NCBI GenBank assembly: GCA_017432665.1
Contig: JAFRIS010000014.1
Location: 4,383-68,382, forward strand
DNA length: 64,000 nucleotides
DNA from: Bacilli bacterium
GTDB taxonomy: Bacteria > Bacillota_I > Bacilli_A > RF39 > UBA660
Direction of reading: 5' to 3'
This document shows positions 12,654 through 34,648 of this stretch, in pieces. A program made the position numbers and the translations under genes. Every line of letters starts with the position of its first letter. The stretch's first letter is position 1. The notes beneath the pieces are model-generated. The model saw nothing but the letters and a program-made list of their open reading frames with translations. It was not told the DNA's origin and made no database searches.

Positions 12654-12661
12654 GTGATAGA

Positions 12662-13474
12662 TTGGATAAGAAAAGAAAAAGAAAAGGGGAAAAAGTTGAT
12701 ATCTTATCAATAATAATGCTCCTGTTACTGATTGCGATCGGAACATTGGCATTTGAATTAAAAAATAGTACTGACTATCAAACTCAATCTAGAGAGTTAG
12801 AAATAAAAGAAGCTCAAAATAATGATAATAATGATAAAAAGACGGTTGGATGGTTAAGAGTTCAAGGAACAAATATCGATCTTCCTATAATATATGCGCC
12901 ATTTTACGATTTCGCATATGAAACGGGTAATTTTGCTTGGACTGAGGCAGATTTTAAAGAATTAAACAATATTGTTTATATTACTGGTCACAATATTAAA
13001 AATATGTCAGCTAGACCACTGATTGCTGATGAAAGTCATGATCGATTTGAGCAGCTAATGAGTTATGTATATGTTGAATTTGCTAAAGAAAATCAATTTA
13101 TTCAATATACATTTAATGGAGAAGATTATTTATATAGAATCTATTCAATTGCTTTTATTGATGAATCTGATATAGATATGTATAACAGAGGAGAATATAC
13201 TAAAGATGATATGAACCGATTTATCAAAACTACTAATGAGAAGAGTATCTATAAATATGATGTAGATGTTAATAATGAAGATAAATTTATTTCATTAAAT
13301 ACATGTACGAATATGTTTGGAGAAAGTGAAAATATTCGTATAACTATAAACGCTAGACTTGTTCGAGACGATGAAAAAGCAAAACTTGCTCAAGTAAAAA
13401 AATCTGAGCAATATAGAATCATAGATAATATTATGGAAGGTGGAGATTCTGATGAAGAAACAGATGAAGTTTAA
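12662..13474 (+). CDS. srtB: Class B sortase
   Basis: Basic N-terminus followed by a TM. VGWL, ITGHN (His), ISLNTCT (Cys) and RITINARLV (Arg) align with the S. aureus SrtB catalytic residues. TTG start after an AGGTGA RBS. Confidence 0.75.
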   Translation: MDKKRKRKGEKVDILSIIMLLLLIAIGTLAFELKNSTDYQTQSRELEIKEAQNNDNNDKKTVGWLRVQGTNIDLPIIYAPFYDFAYETGNFAWTEADFKELNNIVYITGHNIKNMSARPLIADESHDRFEQLMSYVYVEFAKENQFIQYTFNGEDYLYRIYSIAFIDESDIDMYNRGEYTKDDMNRFIKTTNEKSIYKYDVDVNNEDKFISLNTCTNMFGESENIRITINARLVRDDEKAKLAQVKKSEQYRIIDNIMEGGDSDEETDEV

Positions 13475-16469
13475 AAAAGGAATTATAGGGGTTGCAGTAA
13501 TCATTATTGCTGCGGTAGTATTCTTTTCAGCAAAGTCTATGAACAAAGTTGTAGCAGCTAATAATTCTTGCAATAATGCTACAGAATTACAACAATACTA
13601 TAACTTAGCATATGATTGGTCGAATGATGACAAAAAGTTAATTCTCACGACTAAACACGGTAGTTTTAGAATGATTGCAATAAGCCATCCTGAATACTTT
13701 ACAAATACTTTTACTAAAGATTCAGATGGGTACTATAAGATAGATAATGCAAAAGGAACAATTGATAGAGATCATAAACTTACATTGACGATTAAGGATG
13801 TTTCAAGTTTAAATATTCAAAATGAAGATTATGGATTTACTATGAGACTAGCATTATCAGAAAATGATAGTGTAAAAGGATGCCTTTCAATGGCAGAGTT
13901 CAACAGAACTCATTCAGGAGCAACTTTTGAGTCTGGATTAATTGAAATTGAACTTCCAAAGAGTAGTATTACTGCTGGTGGAGCACCTGGTGTTGATAAT
14001 AGTAATTATAATAGAGCTTGTTTGGCTCTAAGAGAAGGAAAAGATCCAACAGGAAAGATTAATGTTTCTGGTGTTAATTATTTAAAATTATATAACGCTA
14101 GTTATCGTGAAGATTATAAAGCATTAGTTCCAAGTTGTTGGCAAGCAAAAGTTTCTAACCCATTTGAAGAAAATGAAATGATTGAAATAATTCGTATCGC
14201 TTTATCATCAACGTATGAACAACATCATTTATCAGTAGGTGAAGGTGATACCGACGGTGGAACTGCTTGGTTAATCAATTTCGATAATGTAGTTAAAGCA
14301 GCTAAAGAAGAAGATAAAACTGCTAAGACTAATAAAGAAAAACATGTATTCTATACTGATGGAAAAAGAAATTTCTTTACTGCTAAAAAAGGTACAAAAG
14401 TATTTGAATTTGGTAATAAAGATAAAAATGTTGGTATAGGAATGAAATGTAGAATTAAGGCTAATTCAGAGGAGAGAGCTACTTTAGATTATTCTAATTT
14501 ATTAGAACATAGTGGAGTAGATTCTAGTGGTAATCCAATTTATAACATTAATGCTAATACTCAACATTATTATGCATGGAATGAATTGATTGAAACAGTT
14601 ACTTATAAATGGAATTACACTAAAGGAAATAGTTTATCAGATAAAAAGAAAACAGAAGTAGTAAATGCTTGTACTAGAATTTGTGAAGAAGCTGTAGAAG
14701 TTAAATATGGACCTCCAGTTGCTTCTAAAGCAGGATTATGTTTTGAATATCAAGTACAAGTAACAAGTAGAGTTAAATGTAAAGCAATAATTAATGCTAA
14801 ACCTCCAAAAGAACCTAAGGTATGTGAACCAAATCCTAAATGTAATAATGTGCCTGGTTATATTCACCAAGCTGGTGGTAATGAAGAATTTGCAGCATGT
14901 ATCCATGAATGTGATGGTGGAAAATACACTAAAGCATGTAGTGATGCTTGTTATGCAGAAGTATATGAAGGTGCTGATAATAAAACAGCAGCTCGTATAG
15001 ATACAGCTAGAACTGAGCAATTAGGATTAAGCAGTGCCTGGTTTAAAGGATATTACAAGTGGAGTGGCGGATCTATTCAATGGGTAAGTCAAGGAAAGAA
15101 AAATACTTATGCTAGATATTATAAACTGTTTGAATATGGAAAAACTTCAAGAGATCATGCTGGTTATGCTGGTAAACAATATAGACCGGTTAATGGATTT
15201 AAACGTAGGATTAAGCCAACTCGTTGTAAAGATAGTTGTTATTTTAGAGGATGTAGTCAAACTCAATATCTAAATAAAGATGAGGCGCATGAAGATTACA
15301 TCAGTAACTTAAAGAAATATAATGCAGCTATTGCTAAATGTAAGGCTAGTGCTTCATGTACAACAAAAACAGCTACATTTACAATTAAAACTGATTATAA
15401 GAGCGGTAATGGACAAACTGTAACAGTTGATTATCCTTATACAGGAAATACTCCTACAACTCCAGAAACATTAACAAGTAGTGATAATGCTAATAATTGT
15501 CATAATCCTGGTAATGTTACAAAAGATAAAGATATTATCTTAAAATATGCTGGATGTTATGCTAAATGTGGTCAAGGACTTCAATATCAAAGTAGATGGA
15601 GTTTCCCAGGATCATGGATTAACAAAAAGACTGGAGAACTTTCATTTGTACCAAAGAATGGAACAGGATGGACTGAAAAAGATGATAAGTTCTGTATTCC
15701 ATTAGATGCTCAAGACGTTAATTCTAAGTGGTGGAAATACTATTATGCATTATATAATGCAAATCATGTTACTTCATATAATACTACTCAAGCAGCTATT
15801 GCAAACTGTATAAGTCTTCTTCCAGAAACAGTTGCTAGTGTTACAGAAAGCGACATTGATAAATGGAATATTAAAGGTTCTACTAGAAACTTTGGATATT
15901 ATGGATGGAACTTTGATATATCTTGCTTCTATGCATTGAATACTAAGTTGAATAAAACGACAACAACTACTACAGAATATACAAATAGTTGTGTTCCAAA
16001 CAATCCACAATCTGCATACAAAATTAGAACGGTTGATTTGAAGAACATGTTCCCAGATAATAGCAAAGCTTCTGGAGCACGTGAACCAGGATTCAACTGG
16101 TCAAGCAATGCCAATATCTTAGCAAGCAATGGTAAGGTAGAGCCTAATCAACAAGTTATGCCTTCAGTATATGCTCAAAAAGTTCAAAGTGAAGGTTATA
16201 ATATTTACAACAACAATAATATTGATTATGAATTTGAATTAACAAAAGAAATGATCAAAAATATAAAAGGAAATGATAGAAATTACACTAATTTCACAGG
16301 TAACATGGTTACTCGAAATGGTATGGTTTCATATCAAAGTGATGTTATTAGAAAAGGAGCGTTTGCTTCATCTAGTAATAAAGTAATGAATACTGCGGCT
16401 ATTGGATGTAACAATGTAGAAAACTACAGAAGTGCAGTATGTAGCAATATACAAGAGGAGGGGAAATAA
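13452..16469 (+). CDS. Large Cys-rich secreted protein (about 1005 aa) with a signal peptide
   Basis: MKKQMKFKKGIIGVAVIIIAAVVFFSA signal peptide and more than 40 Cys. There is no C-terminal LPXTG/NPQTN sorting signal and no C-terminal TM. It lies between the sortase and the Tad genes. Confidence 0.6.
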   Translation: MKKQMKFKKGIIGVAVIIIAAVVFFSAKSMNKVVAANNSCNNATELQQYYNLAYDWSNDDKKLILTTKHGSFRMIAISHPEYFTNTFTKDSDGYYKIDNAKGTIDRDHKLTLTIKDVSSLNIQNEDYGFTMRLALSENDSVKGCLSMAEFNRTHSGATFESGLIEIELPKSSITAGGAPGVDNSNYNRACLALREGKDPTGKINVSGVNYLKLYNASYREDYKALVPSCWQAKVSNPFEENEMIEIIRIALSSTYEQHHLSVGEGDTDGGTAWLINFDNVVKAAKEEDKTAKTNKEKHVFYTDGKRNFFTAKKGTKVFEFGNKDKNVGIGMKCRIKANSEERATLDYSNLLEHSGVDSSGNPIYNINANTQHYYAWNELIETVTYKWNYTKGNSLSDKKKTEVVNACTRICEEAVEVKYGPPVASKAGLCFEYQVQVTSRVKCKAIINAKPPKEPKVCEPNPKCNNVPGYIHQAGGNEEFAACIHECDGGKYTKACSDACYAEVYEGADNKTAARIDTARTEQLGLSSAWFKGYYKWSGGSIQWVSQGKKNTYARYYKLFEYGKTSRDHAGYAGKQYRPVNGFKRRIKPTRCKDSCYFRGCSQTQYLNKDEAHEDYISNLKKYNAAIAKCKASASCTTKTATFTIKTDYKSGNGQTVTVDYPYTGNTPTTPETLTSSDNANNCHNPGNVTKDKDIILKYAGCYAKCGQGLQYQSRWSFPGSWINKKTGELSFVPKNGTGWTEKDDKFCIPLDAQDVNSKWWKYYYALYNANHVTSYNTTQAAIANCISLLPETVASVTESDIDKWNIKGSTRNFGYYGWNFDISCFYALNTKLNKTTTTTTEYTNSCVPNNPQSAYKIRTVDLKNMFPDNSKASGAREPGFNWSSNANILASNGKVEPNQQVMPSVYAQKVQSEGYNIYNNNNIDYEFELTKEMIKNIKGNDRNYTNFTGNMVTRNGMVSYQSDVIRKGAFASSSNKVMNTAAIGCNNVENYRSAVCSNIQEEGK

Positions 16470-16472
16470 TAT

Positions 16473-16961
16473 ATGAACAAAGGAATTTTAACAGTAGGAA
16501 TTATCCTTCTTAGTGTAATTGCATTAGTTTTAATAAATGTATTAACAAATTATTCTACAGGTAGTGAGTTAGATTACTATTTAGTAAAAGAAACAACAGA
16601 CGCTGCTATGGAAGATGCAATTGATATTTCTTATCTAAGAACATGCGGTGTCTATCGATTAGATAAAGAAAAGTTCGTAGAGAGCTTTCTTTATCGATTC
16701 GTCGATAGTGTAGATACAACTAGAGGTTATACTATTGGTTTTTATGATATTAACGAAGTACCACCAAAGGTTAGTGTAAAAGTTGATTCATTAACGGCGT
16801 TAACTTTTAAAGCTAATACAGGAAATGGAGAAGAAGATATCGAAGGAAACATTAGTACTAGTTATGATGCTATACTTGAATCTAAGTATTTAACAGATTT
16901 ACCTACAGAAGAAGGAATGCAGAGTAAAACAAGTGATGCTTGTAAGGCTGTAAAAGGATAA
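16473..16961 (+). CDS. Small N-anchored protein with a prepilin-like N-terminus (MNKG-ILTVGIILL); possible pseudopilin
   Basis: 162 aa with a short basic leader ending in Gly followed by a hydrophobic stretch. It sits in the Tad locus. Confidence 0.4.
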   Translation: MNKGILTVGIILLSVIALVLINVLTNYSTGSELDYYLVKETTDAAMEDAIDISYLRTCGVYRLDKEKFVESFLYRFVDSVDTTRGYTIGFYDINEVPPKVSVKVDSLTALTFKANTGNGEEDIEGNISTSYDAILESKYLTDLPTEEGMQSKTSDACKAVKG

Positions 16962-16982
16962 TAAGGAAGGTGAGAGGATAAA

Positions 16983-17801: not shown

Positions 17802-17840
17802 AATAAAGAAAAAAAGAAAGAATAAAGGGATGTGAGCTCA

Positions 17841-19235
17841 ATGAATGAAAACATATTTGACAAATTAGACTTCGGACCATTTCGTTCGTTATTAGATAAC
17901 GATGATATTACCGATATTTCATATGATAACAATGGACAGATATGGATTCGTTCATTGACTCAAGGATCTTTGCGTGTTGAAGTTGAAGGGGCAACTCCTG
18001 AATTCGTTGAGAAGTTGGCCTTTCAATGTTCCAACGTAATGGGAACAACATTTAATAATGCTAAGCCATTCCTAGATGCTGAATCTGCTGAGTTACGTAT
18101 GAATTTCGTACATCAGTCAATTGCAACTAATGGAATAGCACTAGTTATTCGTAAAACTCCGGCTAAGATTAGATTGGAGAAAGAAAAACTAATTCAAGAA
18201 GACTATTTTACTCCAGCTATACATGACTTTTTAATAAAATGTGTTGAAGGTCACTGTAATATAATGGTTGCTGGAGAAACTGGTTCTGGTAAAACAGAAT
18301 TTGTTAAATATTTAGCTAGTCACACAAAGACTAATGAAAAAATAATAACTATTGAAGATACATTAGAGTTGCACTTAGATAAAATCTTCCCACAAAGAGA
18401 TATAGTTGCAATGAAAACTAACAATGTAGCTTCATACTCAGACGTGTTAGTTACTTGTATGCGTCAGAATCCGAAGTGGATTCTATTATCAGAAGTTCGT
18501 TCTGCAGAAGCTGTTTCTGCTGTACGTAACTCTATTTCATCAGGACATAACATCTTATCAACTATCCATGCCGATAAGGCATCTGCTATACCATATCGTT
18601 TATATTCATTAATGGAAACAGACTTGGATGTTCACCAATTTTTAACGACAATTTATCGTTATATTCAATTAGGTGTCCATATCAAAGCTTTCTATAGTAA
18701 AGAATATGGAAAATTCCATCGTGAATTAGATGAGGTTTCAGAATTCTATGTTGATGATGAAAATGTACCTAGATCAAGAATTATTTATCAAAAAATCTTT
18801 GGTAAACCAATAATGTGTAAGCCTAGTGCTCATTTGGTTGAATATCTTGAAAATCAAAATATTGAAGTTCAAAGTATAATCAAAGATTTACCTGATGAAT
18901 TACCACTTACTGAAGTAATTCAAGAAGGGGAACAAGAATTAGAAAATAACGGTTCTGTTACACAAGAATCGAATAATACAAAAGAGGTTAAGCAACCCGA
19001 GGCTGCTCCGACAGTAGCTCAACAATCACAACCACCACAAGCACAACCTGCACCTGAACCACAAATGGTACAAGGGCAAGCTGCTAGTGAACCAGTTGTT
19101 GCTAATGGAGATGTTCAAATGGCAGCTCCAGTAGTAAACTCAGTGGTTGATAATAAGGCTGCTCAACCACAAGTTGCAGGAGCTCAAGCACCGGTTGCTG
19201 CTCCACAACCTAATATAACTAAATTAGAAGGATAA
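17841..19235 (+). CDS. tadA: Tad/Flp pilus ATPase TadA/CpaF (VirB11/GspE superfamily), with a C-terminal Pro/Gln/Ala-rich tail
   Basis: Walker A GETGSGKT, Asp box and His box region (ILSTIHA). A C-terminal tail of about 90 aa is PQA-rich. Confidence 0.85.
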   Translation: MNENIFDKLDFGPFRSLLDNDDITDISYDNNGQIWIRSLTQGSLRVEVEGATPEFVEKLAFQCSNVMGTTFNNAKPFLDAESAELRMNFVHQSIATNGIALVIRKTPAKIRLEKEKLIQEDYFTPAIHDFLIKCVEGHCNIMVAGETGSGKTEFVKYLASHTKTNEKIITIEDTLELHLDKIFPQRDIVAMKTNNVASYSDVLVTCMRQNPKWILLSEVRSAEAVSAVRNSISSGHNILSTIHADKASAIPYRLYSLMETDLDVHQFLTTIYRYIQLGVHIKAFYSKEYGKFHRELDEVSEFYVDDENVPRSRIIYQKIFGKPIMCKPSAHLVEYLENQNIEVQSIIKDLPDELPLTEVIQEGEQELENNGSVTQESNNTKEVKQPEAAPTVAQQSQPPQAQPAPEPQMVQGQAASEPVVANGDVQMAAPVVNSVVDNKAAQPQVAGAQAPVAAPQPNITKLEG

Positions 19236-19249
19236 AAGGAGTTGAGGAT

Positions 19250-20152
19250 ATGTATTTAACAGAGTTATTTATTATAGCCGCTTTTGTTCTTGCTATTTAC
19301 TTATATCGTAATTATAAAGGTGAACATGTTGGGAAGTATATAGTAGGGCAAGTTCAAGGTATGTATGACAGATTTTCTCCATATTCTTTTAAAGTAGTTC
19401 GTGAAAAGACTAAGCAATTAGGACAAGAATATACACCTAGACAATATACTATCCAAGTTACTTTATTTGCATCATTTGCAGCAGTAGTAACATACTTATA
19501 TTTTTATAATTTAATAATAAGTATAATTTATGCCTTAATTGCAGTATCATTTGTACCTTATATAACATATTTAAGATGTAAAAAAGTATATTCAGAATTC
19601 TTATTTGAGCAAGTTCAAGTATATACATCAAATACTATTATGGAATTTGCTACTACACAATCATTTGTTAAAGCCCTTGAAGGTGTTGCTAATTCTGGAG
19701 TATTAGAAGATCCAGTACTTAGCGACGTTAGACAAATGATTACAATGAGTTATGATAATGGTACTATTGATGAAGCATTAGAATATATGAGTAAATTATA
19801 TCCTTACTATATAGTTAAGAATATGCACCAATTATTCTTACAAATTACTAAAGAGGGTGCTCAAAACTCTGCTGATTCATTAGAAAATATGCAATTAGAT
19901 ATTGATATGCTTGTAGAGAGCGTTTATCGTGATAGAATTGAAAGATCTTCTTTCCACAAGAACTTCTTAACATTTGGTATTACGTTATACTTGATGGTTA
20001 TGTTAGTTCAATACTTACTAGGAAGAGAAACTTATTTAGTATTGTTAGAGCGATGGTATATTCAGTTATTAATGCATGGTGTTTTAATAATAAATACTTA
20101 TTTCCTTTTAAAAGGAGAAAAATATTATAATGAGAATGTAGGTGCTGAATAA
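19250..20152 (+). CDS. tadB: TadB-like pilus assembly inner-membrane protein (T2SS F domain)
   Basis: 300 aa with N-terminal and C-terminal TM segments around a cytoplasmic domain. It directly follows tadA. Confidence 0.65.
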   Translation: MYLTELFIIAAFVLAIYLYRNYKGEHVGKYIVGQVQGMYDRFSPYSFKVVREKTKQLGQEYTPRQYTIQVTLFASFAAVVTYLYFYNLIISIIYALIAVSFVPYITYLRCKKVYSEFLFEQVQVYTSNTIMEFATTQSFVKALEGVANSGVLEDPVLSDVRQMITMSYDNGTIDEALEYMSKLYPYYIVKNMHQLFLQITKEGAQNSADSLENMQLDIDMLVESVYRDRIERSSFHKNFLTFGITLYLMVMLVQYLLGRETYLVLLERWYIQLLMHGVLIINTYFLLKGEKYYNENVGAE

Positions 20153-20955
20153 TGGAGATATTAGTAGTAGGAGCAATTATTTTATTTATCTTAGTTTATA
20201 ATAATACAATTGATAAAGATAAATTCTTTGCTGATAATCAAAAGTACCTAGAAGCTCTAAAAGAAGATGATTATCAATTCTTAGTATATGCTAGATATGG
20301 TGAAGATGTAGATATTAATCAACTATATTCAAAAAGAGTCTCTACAGCATTTATTGCTTTCTTGGTTGTATTAGTATTAACTATATCTAACAATAGTTCA
20401 TATGAAATAATCAATTCACAATTTTTCTTAAACTTAGTGTTGGCTTTAGTAGTAGCAGCAGGAGCTTTTAAATTACCTTATATACAATTAAAAGGTTATT
20501 ATAAGCAACATTTACATGAAATAGATGTAATGCTACCATACTATTTAAAGAGTTTGGAAATCTTAATTCAACACTATACTGTACCGGTTGCTATTGGTAA
20601 GTCAATAGGGGATGCCCCAGATATCTTTAGACCAGGATTAAGAAGAATGATTGATAGAATAAATTCTGGAGATGCAACAGTAGATCCATATATGGAATTT
20701 GCTAATACATATCCAGTTAGAGACTCAATGCGAATGATGCGACTTTTATATCGTTTAGGTATTGGTTCTCAAGAAAGAAAACAAGAAAGACTTATGATGT
20801 TTTCTAGAACAGTGTCAAGTTTACAGAACAAAGCCAGAGAAACAAAGTATAAAGAAAGACTTAATCATATGGAAAGTCAAACTATGATAATGCTTGTTGT
20901 AACTGGTGCTGGAGTTATGGTTATAATCTTAATTTCAATGATGATGATGTTCTAA
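20152..20955 (+). CDS. tadC: TadC-like pilus assembly inner-membrane protein (T2SS F domain)
   Basis: 267 aa with the same architecture. Its start codon overlaps the tadB stop (TAATG). Confidence 0.65.
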   Translation: MEILVVGAIILFILVYNNTIDKDKFFADNQKYLEALKEDDYQFLVYARYGEDVDINQLYSKRVSTAFIAFLVVLVLTISNNSSYEIINSQFFLNLVLALVVAAGAFKLPYIQLKGYYKQHLHEIDVMLPYYLKSLEILIQHYTVPVAIGKSIGDAPDIFRPGLRRMIDRINSGDATVDPYMEFANTYPVRDSMRMMRLLYRLGIGSQERKQERLMMFSRTVSSLQNKARETKYKERLNHMESQTMIMLVVTGAGVMVIILISMMMMF

Positions 20956-21044: not shown

Positions 21045-21212
21045 ATGAAAGCAGCTACAGGAGAATTAAACTTAACTGTAATTACTTTGATTGCAATTGG
21101 AGCAGTAATAGCATTCTTTTGGTTTATGTGGCCAAGTATTAAAAACAGTATTGCTGGACAATGGAATGATGCCTCAGGAAATACTCGTACTAGACATAGT
21201 TCTACTAACTAA
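21045..21212 (+). CDS. Flp/Fap-type pilin, 55 aa (not in the ORF track)
   Basis: Protein MKAATG-ELNLTVITLIAIGAVIAFFWFMW... with a short leader ending in Gly followed by a hydrophobic helix. RBS AAAGGATGGG lies 7 nt upstream. Position between tadC and the tadE-like genes. Confidence 0.55.
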   Translation: MKAATGELNLTVITLIAIGAVIAFFWFMWPSIKNSIAGQWNDASGNTRTRHSSTN

Positions 21213-21234
21213 TTAATTAAGGGGTGAATGTTAA

Positions 21235-21690
21235 ATGCAAGAGGCTTTTGGCGGACTTTTAAATATATTTATTATCGTAATGTTTATTATAATTGTTGAA
21301 GGAATACTTGCATTTACCGTTAGCTATACTAAAGCCTTTAGGATGAAAAATTATGTCATATCTGTCATAGAACAATATGAAGGGTCCGGATGCTTTTGTG
21401 ATGGAGGGACTGCGTGCAAAGATAAGATATATCAACATGCAGATCAAATTCATTATAAACCAACGGCATTACAATGTCATAACGGAGCTAAATCTGTTGA
21501 TGGTTTATTTTGTGTTAGTACTACTGGAAGTGCTCCAGAAGGTATGAATAGTAGCACTAATAAGTATTATAGAATTGTAACTCAAGTTGATATTAATATT
21601 CCAATTATAAATAACATAATGGGGCTTGAGTTTTTTCAAGTGTCTGGAGATACAAGACTTATAAATTTGCAATCCGCAGGAGATTGCTAA
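21235..21690 (+). CDS. TadE-like pseudopilin
   Basis: Prepilin-like N-terminus MQEAFGG-LLNIFIIVMFIIIV. It is a paralog of the next gene. Confidence 0.55.
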   Translation: MQEAFGGLLNIFIIVMFIIIVEGILAFTVSYTKAFRMKNYVISVIEQYEGSGCFCDGGTACKDKIYQHADQIHYKPTALQCHNGAKSVDGLFCVSTTGSAPEGMNSSTNKYYRIVTQVDINIPIINNIMGLEFFQVSGDTRLINLQSAGDC

Positions 21691-21712
21691 TAAGCATTTA
21701 AGAGGTGATTAG

Positions 21713-22234
21713 ATGAGAGACGCTTTCGGTGGTGCGATAAACATTTATATTATAGTAGTGTTCATTGTTTTTGCTTTGGGATATATGGCTTTTAATGTTA
21801 ATTATACTAAGGCGTTTCGTATGAAAGACAAAATTATCTCCGTATATGAAAAATATAAAGGAGATTGTGATTCGGCTCATTGTGAACAAGAAATTATAGA
21901 TTATGCTGATCAAATAGGATATCAACCAGATATTATCGATTGTTTATCAGGAGAATCATTACGACCAAGTCGTGATAAGCTATATTGCGTAAAAGGTGTA
22001 AGAATAGCAAGGGGTAATCCAAAACCTGGACAAGTAGATGATATGGAAACTAAGTGTTATTATCATATTGTAACTAGAATAAATATTTCAATTCCAATTA
22101 TTGAAGCTATTTTTAGAACGCCTGGTACTGATGAAAATGGTAATCGTGTTGATGGTGCTACAAGAATTGAAGCATTTTATGTATCAGGGGATACTAAAAC
22201 AATAACACTTTCAAAGGATAAAAAAACTTGTTAA
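21713..22234 (+). CDS. TadE/TadF-like pseudopilin
   Basis: Prepilin-like N-terminus MRDAFGG-AINIYIIVVFIVFA and the shared NYTKAFRMK motif. Confidence 0.55.
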   Translation: MRDAFGGAINIYIIVVFIVFALGYMAFNVNYTKAFRMKDKIISVYEKYKGDCDSAHCEQEIIDYADQIGYQPDIIDCLSGESLRPSRDKLYCVKGVRIARGNPKPGQVDDMETKCYYHIVTRINISIPIIEAIFRTPGTDENGNRVDGATRIEAFYVSGDTKTITLSKDKKTC

Positions 22235-22265
22235 TGACAAAGAGAATAAATAGAGGTCGATAATA

Positions 22266-23345
22266 ATGAATGTAATCATAGCGAATGAACAACAAAATCA
22301 ATTGGCTAATTTAGACATAGATATCATTAAGAGTATTAATGGTGTTTTTGCCGTCTCAGAAATTATTGATAATTTTAAAAATTTTTTCTATAGCAAAATG
22401 ATTTTAGATGTTACCGCTATTAAGGATTACACAGATGTTAAGACATATGATACTTTAATTAAAGGTTTAGAAGCAGATAAACTTATCTTTCTATTACCTG
22501 AAGGTAGTACTTTATGTACACCTAGGTTTTTAAGTCAATTAATAAAAATAGGTATTTATAACTTTACTACTAATTTGAATGGTATAAAGGTTTTGGTAAA
22601 AAAATCTAATACATTGAAAGATGTGGAAAGCATTTTAAAAATGGCTGAGCCAAAACCAGAAGTTAATGCTTCGGAAAATGTAAATAATAGTGTAAATGAA
22701 AACGTCAATAATAATATTGATATAGAGAACACTCCAGTTCCAAGTGCACCTCAAGATATTGCTCCAAAAGCTGATGGAACAACGGTCATTGGGTTTAAAG
22801 GAGTAACTGAAAGTGCGGGTGTCACGACATTTATTTACATGTTAAAAAAAGAACTAATTATGACTTATGGTTCAGAAAAAGTATTAGCTATTGAAATAGG
22901 AAAAACTGATTTTTCTTTGTTCAATGATCCAAATATGATAAGTAGTGAAGAAACAAGAATAAAAGAAGATTTAGCTCGTAATTCTGATAAAAATATTATT
23001 CTTGTTGATTTAAATAATTGTCATGATACTAGTTTCTGTAATGATATAGTTTATTTGCTAGAACCTAGTACGATTAAATTAAACAAATTAGTTAGAAATA
23101 ACAAAATTATTTTTAGTAAATTAGTTGATCAAAAAGTTGTTTTAAATAAAAGCTTATTATTAACTAGTGATATATCTGATTTTGAAAAAGAATCAGGATT
23201 AAAGGTATTTTATAATATGCCACCGTTAGATGAAAGAAAGAAAAATGAAATTATTACGGATTTTTTAGTTCGTTTAGGATTACTTAACGGTAGTACAAAA
23301 AATGATAGTGCTTCAGGCAAGATATTTGGCTTGTTTAGGCGCTGA
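22266..23345 (+). CDS. TadZ/CpaE-like protein with a degenerate P-loop
   Basis: 359 aa. The N-terminal domain is followed by a MinD/ParA-like region in which Walker A is degenerate (KGVTESAGVTT instead of KGGVGKTT). Confidence 0.4.
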   Translation: MNVIIANEQQNQLANLDIDIIKSINGVFAVSEIIDNFKNFFYSKMILDVTAIKDYTDVKTYDTLIKGLEADKLIFLLPEGSTLCTPRFLSQLIKIGIYNFTTNLNGIKVLVKKSNTLKDVESILKMAEPKPEVNASENVNNSVNENVNNNIDIENTPVPSAPQDIAPKADGTTVIGFKGVTESAGVTTFIYMLKKELIMTYGSEKVLAIEIGKTDFSLFNDPNMISSEETRIKEDLARNSDKNIILVDLNNCHDTSFCNDIVYLLEPSTIKLNKLVRNNKIIFSKLVDQKVVLNKSLLLTSDISDFEKESGLKVFYNMPPLDERKKNEIITDFLVRLGLLNGSTKNDSASGKIFGLFRR

Positions 23346-23399: not shown

Positions 23400-23705
23400 A
23401 TGAATGATGCTTGTTGGGGATTATTACCAATCGTAAGAGTTATAGTTGCTGCAATGAAAGTAGTTACAATTGTTATTCCAATTGCTTTGATTGTTTTTGG
23501 TACTATTGATTTAGGAAAGGCAGTTATTGCCAGTGAAGAAAAAGAAGTAAAGGCTGCACAAAAGAGATTAATTCAAAGATTTATTTATGCTGCACTTGTA
23601 TTCTTCGTACCAACTTTAGTTTATTTTGCAATGAACCTAGTTGCTAAAGGTGAAGGCGAAGGGGATACTAATAGTTGGCGTGGTTGCTGGAACGCTGCAA
23701 AATAA
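23400..23705 (+). CDS. VirB2/TrbC-like 2-TM hairpin protein, 101 aa
   Basis: Two hydrophobic helices separated by a charged loop and ending in CWNAAK. It is homologous to the N-termini of the hydrolase paralogs at 1288 and 2922. Confidence 0.5.
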   Translation: MNDACWGLLPIVRVIVAAMKVVTIVIPIALIVFGTIDLGKAVIASEEKEVKAAQKRLIQRFIYAALVFFVPTLVYFAMNLVAKGEGEGDTNSWRGCWNAAK

Positions 23706-23800
23706 CAAAAAAATGTATGTAAAGAATAGTAATTTCATTGCTATTTTTTTTATGTAATGATATACTTAATATGATATATTATATACATTGGAGTGGTAAT

Positions 23801-24253
23801 ATGAAAAAGAGTTTCTTAATAGTTTTAATCATAATGGTAACTGTATCATTTTTTACTCCTGTAAATGTAATTGCATTAAGTAGTAATAATGAGAAACACA
23901 TATTAGCCAATACTCAAAAGGCTAATTCAAATGTTTCTGTTGATGGATATGATCAAGAACAAAATTGTAGTTCATTGCTAGGTGATCCTACTGATGAAAA
24001 TTCTGTTGCTTGGTTAATTCAAAAACTTTTAAATTATGTTCAAATAATTGGACCATTACTTGTAGTTATTTTAAGTAGTATTGAATTTGCTCAAGTTATT
24101 ATTAAAAGTGATGATGAAGCAATGGCAAAAGCTACTAAGAAATTAACAACTAGATTAATCTTAGCAGCAAGTTTGTTTTTCTTACCAATTATAGTATCAG
24201 CATTATTAAATGTTTTTGGTTTAACAACTGACCCTACATGCGGGCTTAGATAG
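23801..24253 (+). CDS. TrbC/VirB2-like pilin-type protein with a signal peptide
   Basis: ATG at 23801 follows a GGAGTGG RBS. Signal peptide MKKSFLIVLIIMVTVSFF. The mature part has two hydrophobic helices separated by a KSDDEAMAKATKK loop. Confidence 0.5.
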   Translation: MKKSFLIVLIIMVTVSFFTPVNVIALSSNNEKHILANTQKANSNVSVDGYDQEQNCSSLLGDPTDENSVAWLIQKLLNYVQIIGPLLVVILSSIEFAQVIIKSDDEAMAKATKKLTTRLILAASLFFLPIIVSALLNVFGLTTDPTCGLR

Positions 24254-24267
24254 AGAGGTGGAAGTTA

Positions 24268-26496
24268 GTGTTTTCTGAAACAGATTTAAGACCTCAAAGC
24301 ACCTTGCGAGATATGGGTAGAACACTATTTTCAAGTATTGATAAAGCTATCTATGGTTTATTAGGTATTTCTTATCAACTTTTCTTTAGTGTGGCATCTG
24401 CGGATATTTTTAGTACAGGTGTTATAGTTAACTTTTTCCAAAGAATCCAAGTGATCATTGGAATTTTTGTGTTGTTTCAATTAGCTATGACTGTCCTAAA
24501 AGGAATTGTTGATCCTGATAGTTTTACAGATTCTAAGAATGGGGCAGCTAACTTATTCAAAAGAATTGCTACTGCTCTAGTTATGCTAGCGATGGTTGTA
24601 CCTATTAATATTCCTTCTGCTAGTAATGAGTATGAAAAACAAATTAATAATAATGGTCTTTTATTCGGAACATTATATTCATTACAATATAGAATTTTAA
24701 ATAATAATACTATTGGAAAAGTAGTAATGGGTGTTAAAGACAATTCAGAAAGTAGTAATGAATTAGTAGGAATGAATGATGATAACTTTAAGCATTCTTC
24801 TGATATCTTTGTTTCTACGGTATTAAAAGGATTTTATAGAATCAACTTAATTCCAGCAGAGGATAGAAAAGAAAAGAATACTAACGGAAAAGAAGATGAT
24901 CAAATCAGAGCTTATAGAGTTTGTAAAGATATTGATCAAAAGATAATTGATGAGTATAAAAAAGTGGATTCTGATCCAGGTAAAATTATAGATGTTGTAA
25001 ATGTTACTTGTAGTGCAGATCCAGCTTTAACAGGTAAAAGTTTAATAAGTTCAATTGGTGAAAAACTTTATGCCTTTACATACATGCCAGTTGTTTCATT
25101 GATAATGGGTGGTATATTCGTAGTTATTTTACTAGGATTCTGTGTAGAGGTAGCAATTCGTGCTATTAAATTAGCAATACTTCGTTTATTGGCACCAATT
25201 CCAATTATTAGTTATATGGATCCAAAAGGTTCAAAAGATAGTTCTTTTGATGCTTGGGTAAAGGCAGTGACTTCTACATATTTAGATTTATTTATTAGAA
25301 TAGCATCTGTTTATTTTGTAATATATATGATTCAACAAATGTTAGCAAATGGTATTTCTACTAACAGTACAGGAGTATTAAAAACATTCACAGTATTATT
25401 TATCTGGATAGGTTTATTCTATTTTGCTAAAGAAGCTCCTAAGTTTATTAAACAAGTATTAGGAATGAAAGAAGATACAGGAGGCTTATTCAGTGGAGTT
25501 GGAAAACTTCTTGGCATAGGTGCAGCTGGTGCTGGAGTAGTTAGTGGTGCTATTTCATCAGGAGTTGCTTATGGTGGCAAAGGAGTTGGAGGAGTTGCAA
25601 AAGGTATTGGTGCAGGAGCTCTCGGCGCTATTGGTGGAGGTTTCAATGCTGGTAAAACTTTATGGAAACAAGACAAACCTAATGCTGGAGCCGTAATGGC
25701 AGCTAATAGAGCAAGGGCAACAAAGACTTATGCAAATGCTGCTGATGAATCCACTCCTTGGGGTAGATTTGTTGCAGGAGCCCAAAATAATCTTGGACTT
25801 AAAAATAAATATGATAAAATGGAAGAACAAATTAAGTACTATGGAGCTTCAAAAGATGCATTGTCTCGAATAACTAATGCTTTTGATAGCAATGGTGATT
25901 ATAAAGTTCAAGCTAATGATGACTTCTTTGCTAAGTTGTTAGAGACTGGTTCTAAAAAAGGTCATGATTATAAAATAACAGCTAAAGGATTAGAGGATAG
26001 AGATGGTCAATTAGTATTAGCTAGAGGACAAAGTTACAGTTTAAAAGATTTGAACGATAGAAATAATATGTTCTCATCATCAACAGACGGTGTTATGAAA
26101 GATGCTTTGGACGAAGCTAAGAAACAAGCTCAAAGTATGAGATTTGAAGATCTTAAAGAATTTGCTGATACACCTAAAGGTCGTGAACAACTTGTTCAAA
26201 AGATTCAAGAGTCTGCACTTAACGGAACAAATGAATGGACTCAAAATGATCTTATTGCTTACGATGCGGCAACAACTATTTACCATGTTGGTACGAAGTA
26301 TTCTGATGAGCCATTCTTTGCGGACTTCAAAGGAAAAAGCTTTGATGATAGATCTGAACACGGTATTAAATTTGGACATTATAAGAAAGGTGCTAGTAAT
26401 GCAGGTAGATCTGCTGAGCAAATTAAAAATAGTCCAGGGTACTTTGAAGCTAAAGCAAATGCTGCTAGAGCTGAAGAAAGTAATAAGAGTAAGTAG
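24268..26496 (+). CDS. VirB6/TrbL-like polytopic T4SS channel protein (TcpH/PrgH-like) with a Gly-rich cytoplasmic C-terminal domain
   Basis: 742 aa with 6 or more TM helices. The position between the VirB2-like and VirB3/VirB4 genes supports the call. GTG start. Confidence 0.55.
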   Translation: MFSETDLRPQSTLRDMGRTLFSSIDKAIYGLLGISYQLFFSVASADIFSTGVIVNFFQRIQVIIGIFVLFQLAMTVLKGIVDPDSFTDSKNGAANLFKRIATALVMLAMVVPINIPSASNEYEKQINNNGLLFGTLYSLQYRILNNNTIGKVVMGVKDNSESSNELVGMNDDNFKHSSDIFVSTVLKGFYRINLIPAEDRKEKNTNGKEDDQIRAYRVCKDIDQKIIDEYKKVDSDPGKIIDVVNVTCSADPALTGKSLISSIGEKLYAFTYMPVVSLIMGGIFVVILLGFCVEVAIRAIKLAILRLLAPIPIISYMDPKGSKDSSFDAWVKAVTSTYLDLFIRIASVYFVIYMIQQMLANGISTNSTGVLKTFTVLFIWIGLFYFAKEAPKFIKQVLGMKEDTGGLFSGVGKLLGIGAAGAGVVSGAISSGVAYGGKGVGGVAKGIGAGALGAIGGGFNAGKTLWKQDKPNAGAVMAANRARATKTYANAADESTPWGRFVAGAQNNLGLKNKYDKMEEQIKYYGASKDALSRITNAFDSNGDYKVQANDDFFAKLLETGSKKGHDYKITAKGLEDRDGQLVLARGQSYSLKDLNDRNNMFSSSTDGVMKDALDEAKKQAQSMRFEDLKEFADTPKGREQLVQKIQESALNGTNEWTQNDLIAYDAATTIYHVGTKYSDEPFFADFKGKSFDDRSEHGIKFGHYKKGASNAGRSAEQIKNSPGYFEAKANAARAEESNKSK

Positions 26497-26513
26497 AGGG
26501 AGTGTGATAATGA

Positions 26514-26837
26514 ATGTATGATCAATATTTGATACCTGCTAATACTAAACGAGGGCGTTTAATATTAGGCTGGTTTAGACCATTTGATTTAGCATTATTT
26601 GGTACTGGAATACTGATTTCACTTATCATGCTTGCTTTCTTACAGTTTGATGATATTGTATCAGTAATTGTTGGATTAGCACCTGCATTGATTACTGGGT
26701 TTTTGGTCATGCCGGTTCCTAATTACCATAATATGTTGAATATAATAATGGAAGCATATGAATTTTTGACTAATCGTCAAAGATATGAATGGAAAGGTTG
26801 GTGTTATAAAAGTGTCAGCAAAAAAACAAAGCGGTAA
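26514..26837 (+). CDS. PrgI/VirB3-like small 2-TM protein
   Basis: 107 aa with two TM helices. It sits immediately upstream of and overlapping VirB4, the canonical VirB3 position. Confidence 0.55.
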   Translation: MYDQYLIPANTKRGRLILGWFRPFDLALFGTGILISLIMLAFLQFDDIVSVIVGLAPALITGFLVMPVPNYHNMLNIIMEAYEFLTNRQRYEWKGWCYKSVSKKTKR

Positions 26838-27375
26838 TACTAGTAGTAGATTTACTGAAGACTGGTTACCAGTAAGAGCTATTCAAAATAATATGATTAT
26901 TACTAAAAATAATTATAAAGTTGGTGGAGTAAAGATTTCTCCTCGTAATATATTTATTTTGGACCCTGATACTCAAAATAATATTTTGATAGGACTTAGA
27001 AATTTTTATAACACAATAGATTATGAATTCTGGTTAATAGTAGCAGATAGACCAGTTGATATATCTGTTTATATGTCACAAATGCAATTGCTACTTAATG
27101 AAACTAATTCACCAGCAATTCGTAAATTAATTATGCAAGATATTGAAAAGGGTGAAACATTCATCCGTAACAATATAGTTGATACAGAATACTACTTTAT
27201 GTTTAGGAGTAAAAATGTTGATGAATTGCAAAAGAGGATTCGTCAAATGATTAATGGACTTGCGACTTGTGGTCTTAATGCTTCTATGATTAGTAATTCT
27301 GATTTAAGATTAGTTCTAGAGAACTTCTTGAATGGTGGTAATACTACCGAGTTTGGAACGGTGATGCCTCTATGA
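26785..27375 (+). CDS. VirB4-family N-terminal domain encoded as a separate ORF (split or frameshifted VirB4)
   Basis: 196 aa resembling the N-terminal domain of Tn916 Orf16/TcpF-type VirB4. It ends in an ATGA overlap with the ATPase ORF. The true start is uncertain (GTG at 26812 is possible). Confidence 0.55.
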   Translation: MNGKVGVIKVSAKKQSGNTSSRFTEDWLPVRAIQNNMIITKNNYKVGGVKISPRNIFILDPDTQNNILIGLRNFYNTIDYEFWLIVADRPVDISVYMSQMQLLLNETNSPAIRKLIMQDIEKGETFIRNNIVDTEYYFMFRSKNVDELQKRIRQMINGLATCGLNASMISNSDLRLVLENFLNGGNTTEFGTVMPL

Positions 27376-29171
27376 GTACAAGTTTAAGAGGACAATTAGC
27401 TCCTAAAGGATTACATTTTAATCATAGTGACTTTGTTATTAGTGATAAATATGCAACTATTTTAACAGTTGTTTCTTATCCTAAATACATTATGCCAGGA
27501 TATTTATCAACACTTACTAATATGTCAGGTATTAAAGTAGTTGTTAAACATATCCCAGTTCCTTGGGGAGATATGGCAAAGATGTTAAATAAGCAAGTTG
27601 CTGAATTAAAAGAAAGATATCAAAATGAAAAAGACCAAACTGTTCGTGAAAGAATTAGACAAGATGCTGAAAGTTTGGAATACTTTACTTCTATGTTAGC
27701 AGGATCACAAGCTAGAATATTTGATTTTCAAATGCATATTATGATTACTGCTGATACTAAAGAAGAATTAGAATTAAAGAAATTGAATGTTAAGAATTAC
27801 CTTGATTCAATGGAATTAAGAGCTATTTCACTTCGTTTTGAACAAGAGAAAGTATTAAAATCAATTCTTCCAATATTCCCAGATAGGGATACTCAAGAAT
27901 TAGAATCAAGAATTGGTACTCCGATTCCTTCAGTTACTATCGCAGCAATGTATCCATTTATCTTCGATAGTATTAAAGATCCAGGATTATCTACATTACT
28001 TGGAGTAGATTTCTCTGGAGGAGTAATTCTATTCAATCAATTCTTATATAAAGTTCGTAAGGAAACTAATAGAAATAATGCTAATATGATTATTCTAGGT
28101 ACTTCTGGTTCTGGTAAATCTACTGCAGCTAAGTTGTTACTTAGAACTCATATTCGTAATGGATGTCAAATAGTTATAATCGATCCAGAAGATGAGTTTA
28201 GAGAATTAACTCGTACTTATGGAGGAGATAGTGTTGATATTGGAAAAGGTGGAGAATTTGGACTTATTAATCCCCTTGAAATAGTTATTGATGCTGATGA
28301 AGAAGAAATTAAACAAGGTTTAGGTTATACAGTTTTAACTAGGACTTTGCAATTCTTAAAAGCATTTATGAAGTATTATGATCCTTCTATAGAAGAAGCT
28401 GTACTTACTATGTTTTCTGAAATAGTACAAGATACTTATAGGAGATTTGGTATAGACTTTACAACTGACTTTTCTAGGTATACATCAGAGGATTATCCGA
28501 CATTTAGTGATGTATACGCAACTATTAAAGGAAGACTTATGTCTATGACTGAACAAACTCAAGAAAGAGAAATTATGGAAAAACTTGAGTTAAAAGTAAG
28601 ACCTATTGTTAATGAATTGAAATTTTACTTTGATGGTCATACTACTATTAGTAAAGGTAGTGACTTCATGGTATTTAATATTAAAGAGTTAATGAATAGT
28701 GATTCTACTATTAAGAATGCTTTGTTCTTCAGTGTTTTAAAATATGCTTGGGGTCTATGCTTAGACTTCAATGTTGATACAGTCTTAATGGTTGATGAGG
28801 CTCATGTTTTGTTAGGTGATAATAATGCACTTGGTGCTGACTTCTTAGCCCAAGTTCAAAGACGTGCTCGTAAATATAATACTGGTACAGTTATTATTAC
28901 ACAGCAACCTAGTGATTTCTCAGATCCAGCTGTTATTACACAAGGTAAAGCAATCTTTGATAACTCTTCTTATTACTTAGTAATGGGTCTTAAAAAGCAA
29001 GCTGTCGAAGATTTGTCATTACTTATTGATTTAAATGAAAGTGAGAAAGAAAGCATTAAACATTATTCTCAAGGTGAAGCATTATTCGTATGTGGTCACC
29101 GTCGTATGAGAATAAATGTAGCTGTTACGCAAGAAGAATTGGATTCCTTTGGAAGTGGAGGAGGATTCTAG
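27372..29171 (+). CDS. VirB4-family T4SS ATPase (TcpF/PrgJ/Orf16-like), C-terminal ATPase part
   Basis: Walker A GTSGSGKST and Walker B LMVDEAHVLL. 599 aa. Confidence 0.85.
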   Translation: MSTSLRGQLAPKGLHFNHSDFVISDKYATILTVVSYPKYIMPGYLSTLTNMSGIKVVVKHIPVPWGDMAKMLNKQVAELKERYQNEKDQTVRERIRQDAESLEYFTSMLAGSQARIFDFQMHIMITADTKEELELKKLNVKNYLDSMELRAISLRFEQEKVLKSILPIFPDRDTQELESRIGTPIPSVTIAAMYPFIFDSIKDPGLSTLLGVDFSGGVILFNQFLYKVRKETNRNNANMIILGTSGSGKSTAAKLLLRTHIRNGCQIVIIDPEDEFRELTRTYGGDSVDIGKGGEFGLINPLEIVIDADEEEIKQGLGYTVLTRTLQFLKAFMKYYDPSIEEAVLTMFSEIVQDTYRRFGIDFTTDFSRYTSEDYPTFSDVYATIKGRLMSMTEQTQEREIMEKLELKVRPIVNELKFYFDGHTTISKGSDFMVFNIKELMNSDSTIKNALFFSVLKYAWGLCLDFNVDTVLMVDEAHVLLGDNNALGADFLAQVQRRARKYNTGTVIITQQPSDFSDPAVITQGKAIFDNSSYYLVMGLKKQAVEDLSLLIDLNESEKESIKHYSQGEALFVCGHRRMRINVAVTQEELDSFGSGGGF

Positions 29172-29193
29172 AAAATAGTTAGGTGGTGATGTT

Positions 29194-31449: not shown

Positions 31450-31457
31450 GTGATAAT

Positions 31458-32231: not shown

Positions 32232-32287
32232 TTAATGACAGTTTTCAAAAGTTAAGTTATAATATATACGAGAAAGAAGGGACAAAT

Positions 32288-34633: not shown

Positions 34634-34648
34634 AAAGGGAGATGAATT

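Follow-up and report, generated by a model that had tools for sequence, protein, structure and literature searches.

In a 64,000-nucleotide stretch of the genome of a Bacilli bacterium (GTDB lineage Bacillota_I; Bacilli_A; RF39; UBA660; assembly GCA_017432665.1, contig JAFRIS010000014.1, positions 4,383 to 68,382 of the forward strand; hereafter the window), a sortase gene and the gene for a Cys-rich secreted protein lie at the head of a locus for a filament- and secretion-type apparatus. Combining the sequence and modelling data, we suggest with moderate confidence that this sortase is dedicated to the gene cassette in which it is encoded, that it is probably active, and that it recognizes a non-canonical signal lacking the usual C-terminal membrane anchor, with the Cys-rich protein or the adjacent immunoglobulin (Ig)-like protein as its likely partner. 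In the mechanism that we propose, (i) the sortase would have been recruited for good into a head cassette that evolves fast and encodes the Ig-like protein, the sortase, the Cys-rich protein and a DUF5411 protein, (ii) this cassette would head a chromosomal, relaxase-less, conjugation-derived apparatus of RF39-type gut Bacilli comprising a VirB11/TadA-type ATPase, pilins and a type IV secretion system (T4SS), and (iii) the membrane-tethered sortase would act on a protein of its own cassette. Its likeliest job would be to covalently retain the Sec-released Cys-rich protein at, or join it to, the apparatus or the wall. Alternatively, it may cut the Ig-like protein at a juxtamembrane ELPTG. In Gram-positive bacteria, sortases and type IV/Tad-type filaments (Tad, tight adherence) are regarded as separate routes to surface fibres. 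In approximately 190 genomes of uncultured gut Bacilli, RF39 being common in animal and human guts, a sortase gene is firmly built into such a machine, and it travels with a putatively disulfide-rich protein of approximately 1000 residues that has no relative of known structure.

The open reading frame (ORF) at 12662-13474 encodes a genuine class-B-type sortase, as judged from its sequence and its predicted fold. It scores barely above the cut-off of the Pfam Sortase family (26.7 versus 26.6 bits) and far below that of the srtB family TIGR03064 (52.4 versus 153.75 bits); solved SrtB chains match it at E-values of 4e-12 to 1e-9 with the GHN and TC motifs aligned. An AlphaFold model made from 100 homologues (predicted local distance difference test, pLDDT, 91.6; predicted template modelling score, pTM, 0.84) contains the sortase beta-barrel with the helices specific to SrtB, and the top 19 Foldseek matches to this model are all class B sortases (E-values 1e-13 to 3e-8; target TM-score 0.60-0.79), including SrtB of Clostridium perfringens, Staphylococcus aureus, Clostridioides difficile and Bacillus anthracis and the pilus enzymes of Streptococcus pneumoniae and Streptococcus pyogenes; for the C. 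perfringens, S. aureus and C. difficile enzymes and the two pilus enzymes, the E-values are 1e-13 to 1e-10 and the target TM-scores 0.63-0.79. A first-pass annotation of the window, made by a model from the letters alone, had called a class B sortase with the catalytic His (ITGHN), Cys (LNTCT) and Arg (RITINAR) in SrtB-like spacing, and both the call and the residues are borne out: His110 is encoded at 12989-12991, Cys215 at 13304-13306 and Arg226, within NIRITINAR and approximately 10 residues past the Cys, at 13337-13339. By its spacing, we take Arg226 to be the equivalent of Arg233 of S. aureus SrtB (RIVVVAK). The same annotation had named loss of the Cys or His on careful alignment as an argument against the call; both are invariant in the alignment of 100 homologues. 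Two features set the family apart, (i) a confidently modelled C-terminal extension of approximately 35 residues with a strand (245-247), a helix (251-258) and an acidic tail and (ii) an insertion after the catalytic His in which N114 and P119 are invariant and S116 is 98% conserved. The K/R-rich N-terminus followed by one transmembrane (TM) helix predicts that the catalytic domain is extracytoplasmic, and from residues and model the window sortase is probably catalytically active.

A word-indexed search returned 135 close homologues of 246-279 residues, for which the sole name given is "class B sortase [Bacilli bacterium]". A profile search returned 142 clusters at E-values of at most 1e-30, approximately 90 of them of the 250-280-residue type, followed by longer proteins (290-560 residues) that share GHNxxNxSxxP, MFxQL and TCTR...QRFVVMARL. 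The longer relatives are "class B sortases" of Oscillospiraceae, for example Hydrogenoanaerobacterium saccharovorans, and score 120-165 bits against the family profile; in two genomes they stand alone among hrcA-grpE-dnaK, cob genes and rplM-rpsI without a link to pili or a T4SS. They have the GHNxxNxSxxP, MF/RFxQL and TCTR motifs and part of the C-terminal extension in common with the RF39-type enzymes but differ in their long N-terminal linkers, in their housekeeping context and in keeping both Arg positions, i.e. the canonical one and a second one two residues past the Cys (Cys+2). Members of the RF39-type family have H (23%), Q (16%), E (16%), S (14%) or R (11%) at the canonical position, with R and K together at 16%, and R or K at Cys+2 in 81%. 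The clade of the window sortase is reversed (N217, R226), and ten sequences have neither basic residue. We suggest from this pattern that a basic residue at Cys+2 could stand in for the canonical Arg.

In a taxonomic scan with one genome per GTDB species, 196 stretches encode a relative of the sortase. With the exception of two records titled Gastranaerophilales and Muribaculaceae, those listed come from uncultured gut Bacilli and carry the labels Bacilli, Tenericutes, Mycoplasmatota, Erysipelotrichaceae, Mycoplasma sp. CAG:877 or Candidatus Faecimonas. Thus, the family is present in approximately 190 genomes of uncultured gut Bacilli, of which those that can be placed belong to the order RF39. 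Faecimonas corresponds to the GTDB genus CAG-877 of this order, with genomes of approximately 1.4 Mb and 28% GC (PMC8035907), and RF39 bacteria are predicted to retain a peptidoglycan wall and srtA/B (PMC10868615); the supplement of the latter paper gives no sortase counts for RF39. The window itself carries ftsW, an mltG-like yceG, sepF and divIVA.

For synteny and sequence identity we used 81 related loci retrieved by sortase similarity. Their gene order is essentially fixed: greA, a 514-residue membrane protein, the Ig-like protein, the sortase, the Cys-rich protein, the DUF5411 protein, a CpaB-like protein, the ATPase, two membrane proteins, a 55-residue pilin, two pilin-like proteins, a 359-residue protein and VirB2-like pilins. 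The Ig-like gene lies directly upstream of the sortase gene in 78 of the 81 loci, and the gene for the 514-residue protein, which is sometimes part of a duplicated unit, occupies its position in 74. Two further loci, retrieved independently via distant homologues of the Cys-rich protein (29-37% identity), have the identical order, sortase included. The sortase stop codon overlaps or abuts the start of the Cys-rich gene in the window as in relatives (23 nucleotides in the window; 8, 8 and 14 in L001, L002 and L084). GreA of the related loci has a median identity of 88% to the window protein, and the ATPase and the two membrane proteins reach 75-77%. The values are lower for the Ig-like protein (48%), the pilin-like proteins (41-43%), the Cys-rich protein (32%) and the sortase (42%), which therefore evolves at the pace of the exposed, variable proteins. 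On these comparisons, the sortase and the Cys-rich protein are fixed, co-inherited parts of the putative pilus or secretion machine.

In five genomes (L039, L040, L045, L059 and L064) the unit consisting of the [Ig-like], sortase, Cys-rich and DUF5411 genes is duplicated in tandem, with or without the gene for the 514-residue protein, and a single CpaB-like/ATPase core follows (for example L040, 8162-20564). His and Cys are intact in both sortase copies. Within the genomes compared (L039, L040, L045 and L059), the copies are 39-61% identical for the sortase, 37-50% for the Cys-rich protein and 68-99% for DUF5411. Because the duplicated cassettes keep diverged but intact sortases, the sortase appears to be part of the head module, which is variable and exchangeable, and not of the conserved core, and we consider co-duplication the strongest argument that it would serve this module. 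The proposal of the first-pass annotation that the gene might be a remnant is refuted by the invariant His and Cys, the strict synteny in approximately 80 loci and the intact sortases of the duplicated cassettes. In two genomes the DUF5411 copies are almost identical (99%) despite strong divergence of the sortase and Cys-rich copies, a pattern that suggests cassette exchange by recombination with DUF5411 as a homology arm.

The Cys-rich protein was correctly recognized in the first-pass annotation as a secreted protein of 1005 residues: it has 29 Cys and a signal peptide with a V-x-A site (V-V-A). Among its 195 homologues, only one is named ("hypothetical protein"), none has a Pfam domain, and all contexts examined are of the same locus type. 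The protein has no sequence match in the PDB, and its AlphaFold model (pLDDT 80.6; pTM 0.66) has no significant fold match in the PDB or BFVD. Conservation of 23 of the 29 Cys, with CX3C pairs at 407/411, 483/487, 496/500 and 592/596, would fit extracellular helices stapled by disulfides. The N-terminal approximately 400 residues are variable and the C-terminal approximately 600 conserved, which is the pattern of a putative surface protein with a variable distal part. Given that after removal of the signal peptide the protein has neither a membrane anchor nor a pilin-like segment, it would have to be retained by binding to a partner or by covalent attachment. Its anchoring by a non-canonical signal, one of the options listed in the first-pass annotation, is our leading hypothesis.

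The first-pass annotation had noted that none of the large surface proteins encoded at 10872, 13452 and 34649 ends in an LPXTG/NPQTN-type sorting signal. An ORF scan confirms this and extends it: none of the window ORFs of at least 60 residues ends in a sorting motif, hydrophobic segment and K/R tail, nor does any apparatus gene among the ORFs of the 81 related loci (approximately 1.6 Mb). Outside the apparatus, classical signals are found sporadically in relatives, as in a protein of L066 (SPVTG, TM segment and KTKKSKS) and a Cna-B-type protein of L063 (IPNTL, TM segment and RRYHQY). L049 (2524-4232, + strand) encodes a conventional 214-residue SrtB with 24% identity to the window sortase and, after it, a 353-residue secreted protein that ends in ...IIPPNTGID; this sorting signal appears to break off directly behind the motif, perhaps through a frameshift or an assembly error. 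The separate SrtB beside the PPNTG protein indicates that classical substrates in the lineage can have their own enzyme. As to a canonical substrate encoded elsewhere, a possibility also raised in the first-pass annotation, proteins with sorting signals lie near the locus in L066, L063 and L049, with L049 having its own conventional SrtB.

Class B pilus sortases act on [E/Q]VPTG, and wall-anchoring class B sortases on NPQTN. Four candidate motifs were found among the products of the head genes and the CpaB-like gene, and we consider the first the best motif candidate to be kept. (a) In the Ig-like protein, [E/Q/K]-L-P-T-G (residues 54-58, 11031-11045) lies approximately 22 residues after the N-terminal TM helix and is kept in approximately 90% of the orthologues and in the duplicated copies checked; it resembles [E/Q]VPTG, the gene for the Ig-like protein adjoins the sortase gene and has no plasmid counterpart. 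As a signal it is compromised by its position after the anchor, where cleavage would release the ectodomain, and by at least three orthologues with V or L for T; moreover, the paralogue at 34649 has LPQNEG at this position, suggesting that ELPTG is perhaps a structural turn. The N-terminal domain of the Ig-like protein has no match in the PDB. (b) In the CpaB-like protein, [L/P]-V-P-T-N-E-S (17694-17708) is conserved 30 residues from the C-terminus; it is disfavoured because a sortase-less plasmid homologue has PVASGES and a similar W-containing tail. (c) In the Cys-rich protein, W-I-N-N-K-T-G-E is disfavoured because YVEKFSGN of a plasmid protein aligns with it and because several RF39 members have lost the T or G. 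(d) An invariant [C/V]-N-N of the Cys-rich protein (16404-16415), 1-38 residues from the C-terminus across the family, is unlike any known sortase motif. EVPPK of the DUF5411 protein lacks T-G. No co-variation of the sortase active-site type with motif variants was detected beyond phylogeny.

Several observations weigh against a dedicated sortase. The nearest relatives outside RF39 stand alone among housekeeping genes, implying that the ancestor was probably a general sortase; the canonical Arg is kept in so few members that the chemistry of most of the family is uncertain; the SPVTG and IPNTL proteins of L066 and L063 lie near the locus, and no other sortase is encoded in the stretches retrieved; and linkage and co-duplication are expected of any gene in the middle of a duplicated segment. 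In addition, a loose class-B-like pattern is expected approximately 1.9 times by chance in the 18.7 thousand residues of the window proteins, and the motif candidates are all post hoc and weak, none being evidence by itself. The main rival explanation, which we rate as unlikely but serious, is that the enzyme is the housekeeping class B sortase of the lineage and that its place in the operon is a historical accident kept by the synteny of reduced genomes. The stand-alone Oscillospiraceae relatives, the L066 and L063 proteins, the reported retention of srtA/B and the wall in RF39 (PMC10868615) and the complete His/Cys/Arg triad of the window protein are all in agreement with this explanation, under which our finding would shrink to an unusual gene position. 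It accounts poorly for the loss of the canonical Arg in most members, for a sequence that evolves very fast compared to the housekeeping neighbours, for the diverged and intact copy in each duplicated cassette, and for the conventional SrtB beside the PPNTG protein in L049; likewise, the window contains no classical substrate, and the approximately 1.6 Mb of related loci contain two plus the one truncated PPNTG.

Alternatively, the protein may not be a transpeptidase at all. Its main role could be that of a hydrolase or sheddase, or it could assist the assembly of the disulfide-rich protein as a chaperone without catalysis, in the way of SipA, the inactive signal-peptidase homologue of streptococcal pilus assembly. 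The replacement of the canonical Arg by H, Q, E or S in most members, the family-specific C-terminal extension and the insertion after the His are consistent with such a role, and cleavage at an ELPTG that follows the anchor would release the ectodomain rather than anchor it. The invariance of His110 and Cys215 in 100 members argues, however, for retained thiol chemistry, the window protein keeps Arg226, and the Arg or Lys at Cys+2 in 81% could take over the role of the canonical one. On balance, we think this improbable.

The dedicated, transpeptidase-type sortase that we favor would operate in an apparatus whose affinities lie with conjugation systems. The ATPase (17832-19235) has its best NCBIfam scores with VirB11 (112 bits) and the TadA family (104 bits), both under the cut-offs; the two membrane proteins encoded from 19250 and 20152 have no match to T2SSF even at E-values up to 5; the CpaB-like protein scores 25.0 bits for SAF (cut-off 21), 22.7 for RcpC (28.8) and 32.4 for TIGR03177 (71); the 55-residue pilin has the leader MKAATG/ELNLT, which lacks the EY of the G/XXXXEY signal; and no prepilin peptidase of the TadV/CpaA type is encoded in the window. 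Thus, from the sequence, the case for Tad membership of the block is weak and its genes are only Tad-like. In a separate observation, all but one of the N-terminal 18 residues of the pilin, MKAATGELNLTVITLIAI, reach at least 90% conservation in 65 sequences, and a conserved N-I-S sequon and a variable C-terminal tail follow. The T4SS genes encode an AAA_10/TraG P-loop domain, T4SS-DNA_transf (E-value 2e-58), TrbL_4 and SpoIID domains. DUF5411 has been found in uncharacterised Tad-like loci of Clostridia (PMC9523054).

Homologues of the CpaB-like protein are encoded on 365 plasmids of the B. cereus group. The order on pE81-53 of B. cytotoxicus is an SLH-domain protein, an 852-residue "conjugal transfer protein", DUF5411, a CpaB-like protein, an AAA ATPase, an ATPase of the type II secretion system/type IV pilus/T4SS family, two membrane proteins, small proteins, relaxase-type genes, TcpD and TcpE. 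VirB11, VirB4 and VirD4 homologues have been described for plasmid pBT9727, a member of the pAW63/pXO2 family (PMC9673590). The gene order of this plasmid is comparable, and its ATPase, VirB4 and VirD4 share homology with their counterparts in the window. The RF39 locus and these plasmids thus have in common a large secreted protein, DUF5411, the CpaB-like protein, the ATPase, membrane proteins, small pilin-like proteins and a T4SS, the CpaB-like protein, ATPase, VirB4 and VirD4 being 23-30% identical between them; a tblastn search of the plasmids with the DUF5411 protein returned nothing. The plasmids differ in carrying relaxase, replication and partition genes, whereas the RF39 locus is chromosomal and relaxase-less. 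At the homologous place on pE81-53 and pBT9727 there is no sortase, no Ig-like gene and no Cys-rich large protein, and a plasmid search with the sortase returned only distant, ordinary srtB genes. The 852-residue plasmid protein has a signal peptide, only 9 Cys and just two collinear weak motif matches to the Cys-rich protein (WSxPxT..K..G and R...FP...GWNW). The second of these lies on residues that are invariant in the Cys-rich family.

The sortase, the Ig-like gene and a Cys-rich large protein are all missing from the plasmids and hence make their appearance jointly in RF39. The RF39 additions would comprise the 514-residue membrane protein, the Ig-like protein, the sortase, the remodelling of the Cys pattern and a C-terminal extension of approximately 46 residues on the large protein. 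A domesticated relative of a Gram-positive conjugation architecture is therefore our best reading of the RF39 locus; while the Tad-like genes reported in the first-pass annotation are present, the separate Tad pilus locus beside a T4SS dissolves into one putative conjugation-type architecture common to the B. cereus-group plasmids. The head gene of pE81-53 (L086, 9323-10789) encodes three SLH domains and a linker of PEEKPNTGGEVK repeats, i.e. a protein for non-covalent wall binding. By analogy, the sortase at the head of the RF39 locus may be an alternative to the SLH protein at the head of the plasmid locus for tying the head to the wall.

The plasmids also bear on two other potential jobs for the sortase. 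In a host without an outer-membrane secretin, the ring of CpaB-like proteins could be anchored by a cut at [L/P]-V-P-T-N and linkage to peptidoglycan or to other subunits. V-P-T is present in 72 of 73 orthologues near the C-terminus of an N-terminally anchored, extracytoplasmic protein, beyond the region of CpaB homology, and the motif resembles [E/Q]VPTG and NPQTN. We consider this scenario very unlikely: the tail of the sortase-less plasmid homologue (IIPVASGES...WIQ) implies that the tail is ancestral and does not track the sortase, the residue after the Thr varies (N, S, D, A or G), the sequence past the motif is conserved, unlike a leaving group, and genomes with duplicated sortases carry just one CpaB-like gene. 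Removal of class III leaders takes place on the cytoplasmic side of the membrane and is the work of polytopic aspartyl proteases. The first-pass annotation had the idea that the sortase processes prepilins; it would then replace an absent prepilin peptidase and remove the invariant leaders MKAATG/E and MRDAFG/G, which end in T-G or G-G. This idea is hardly credible in spite of the lack of such a peptidase in the locus and window, because the sortase domain is predicted to lie outside the membrane, the plasmid homologues manage without a sortase and an N_methyl pilin gene on a related contig suggests that a Com-type peptidase is encoded elsewhere in these genomes.

We return to the cassette-dedicated sortase in comparison with known systems. 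Wall-anchoring SrtB enzymes (S. aureus, IsdC, NPQTN; C. difficile and C. perfringens, [S/P]PxTG) are its best sequence and structure matches and have the fold, the SrtB helices, the N-terminal anchor and the His and Cys in common with it, and the window protein also has the Arg. They are only 20-27% identical, and the RF39 family differs in the extension of approximately 35 residues, the insertion after the His, the non-conserved Arg and the lack of a cognate substrate with motif, TM segment and charged tail near the sortase. The pilus sortases Spy0129 of S. pyogenes and SrtG1 of the S. pneumoniae PI-2 pilus (3psq and 4y4q; target TM-score 0.68-0.76) are likewise encoded in filament operons. 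In contrast to their Cna-type pilins with C-terminal signals, the RF39 pilins are type IV/Tad-like with N-terminal helices, and the candidate motif after an N-terminal anchor has the reverse topology. Sortase chemistry has been described for a surface protein of a Gram-positive conjugation machine, PrgB of pCF10, in a review according to which Gram-positive conjugation functions without pili and needs the sortases of the host for its LPxTG adhesins (PMC12857230). The signal of PrgB is a canonical LPxTG on which the host housekeeping sortase acts, whereas in RF39 the sortase lies inside the operon and a canonical signal is lacking. In the literature that could be searched, queries on a link between sortases and Tad systems, on RF39 secretion systems and on DUF5411 turned up no earlier account, and there is no precedent for a sortase in a Tad/T4SS context, which the first-pass annotation had rightly called unexpected. 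What appears to be new is the fixed integration of a sortase with a shifted Arg into a type IV filament/T4SS-type machine without a canonical signal; the enzyme family itself is known. The identity of the substrate would define a new sorting signal, explain how the head is mounted and give a handle on cell contact in unculturable bacteria.

Two further systems are similar by analogy in combining a filament with a second secretion machine and variable or multiple head or tip modules. The Kil Tad pilus of Myxococcus, as its abstract describes, has interchangeable tip complexes and works with a needleless type III secretion system (PMC12075869), and Patescibacteria, a reduced-genome lineage, have a chromosomal, relaxase-less T4SS with VirB2-like pilins (PMC12102498), as in RF39. 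The difference is the sortase, which is absent from the account of Patescibacteria (PMC12102498) and from the abstract on the Kil pilus (PMC12075869). The relaxase-less chromosomal apparatus of RF39 in this way resembles the T4SS that Patescibacteria need for epibiotic life. A more far-reaching scenario, which we regard as doubtful, is that the RF39 locus encodes a domesticated conjugation or type IV filament machine with an exchangeable head built by sortase chemistry, in which a sortase with a relocated Arg couples or releases a disulfide-rich tip or adhesin. The enzyme would recognize an anchorless signal and covalently couple the disulfide-rich protein of novel fold to a pilin-like adaptor or the wall, or release it from one. 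If true, a type IV/Tad-like filament or T4SS would for the first time have a step that depends on a sortase, and this would point to a contact-dependent lifestyle, i.e. attachment to or exchange with other cells, in a gut lineage with reduced genomes.

The features of the locus are listed in Table 1. The sortase lies in a low-GC region (approximately 29%) with a long run of genes on the + strand, and the locus (9317-35902) is flanked by greA and by VTT/rmuC/trpS; domain searches in it found no relaxase, integrase or replication genes. A promoter-like site at 9266-9294 precedes 9317, and a perfect sigma-70 consensus (TTGACA, 17 nucleotides, TATAAT) lies at 23351-23379 (+ strand) directly upstream of the first VirB2-like gene at 23400. 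The intergenic gaps are minimal and no convincing terminator separates the two promoters, which points to a single operon spanning 9317-23345 and to another for the T4SS genes; the consensus is probably the start of a separate T4SS transcription unit.

Table 1. Features of the sortase locus and its apparatus (window coordinates; aa, amino acids).
Feature	Coordinates	Strand	Remarks
Polytopic membrane protein, 514 aa	9317..10861	+	First head-cassette gene; extracytoplasmic beta-rich C-terminal half; faint DUF4352 Pfam match
Ig-like protein, 593 aa	10872..12653	+	N-terminal anchor, Bact_surface_Ig-like (Pfam E 3e-17), DUF6273-like modules
Class-B-type sortase, 270 aa, TTG start	12662..13474	+	K/R N-terminus, TM helix 14-34, His110/Cys215/Arg226
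Cys-rich secreted protein, 1005 aa, 29 Cys	13452..16469	+	Signal peptide; 23-nucleotide overlap with sortase gene
DUF5411 protein, 162 aa, N-terminal hydrophobic segment	16473..16961	+	Pfam DUF5411 E 4e-43; closes duplicated cassette
CpaB/RcpC-like protein, 272 aa, N-terminal TM segment	16983..17801	+	SAF, RcpC and TIGR03177 matches
VirB11/TadA-type secretion ATPase	17832..19235	+	T2SSE E 1.5e-27
Two polytopic membrane proteins, TadB/TadC position	19250..20152, 20152..20955	+	Assigned by position and size only
Flp-sized pilin, 55 aa	21045..21212	+	N-terminus MKAATGELNLTVITLIAI
Pilin-like proteins, 151 and 173 aa (MxxAFGG N-termini), and 359-aa protein	within 21045..23345	+	
T4SS block	23400..35902	+	Two VirB2-like pilins, VirB6/TrbL-like, small VirB3-position protein, VirB4, SpoIID-domain wall hydrolase, VirD4
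DUF6273 surface protein, 417 aa, in T4SS block	starts 34649	+	Paralogue of the Ig-like-protein gene at 10872

An apparatus of approximately 26 kb is found at the same chromosomal place, after greA, in distant RF39-type genomes (loci L001-L085). Upstream in the window, the genes at 1288-2139 and 2922-3770 (+ strand) encode paralogues of 283 and 282 residues with a VirB2-like T4SS_pilin domain (approximately 28 bits, above the cut-off) and a C-terminal NlpC/P60 domain; this unusual fusion is also encoded upstream of greA in the distant relatives L084 and L085. A HerA/DUF87-type ATPase of 659 residues (44918-46897, + strand) is an unusual neighbour directly upstream of sepF and divIVA. Finally, a 998-residue ORF at 60221-63217 (+ strand) stands out by its GC content (0.38 versus approximately 0.29); it has no Pfam match, and its product combines a helical domain at the N-terminus with long low-complexity tracts of Ala/Thr/Gly and Asn/Glu/Thr and, close to the C-terminus, a single TM segment, features with which it could be a secretion-associated or surface protein.

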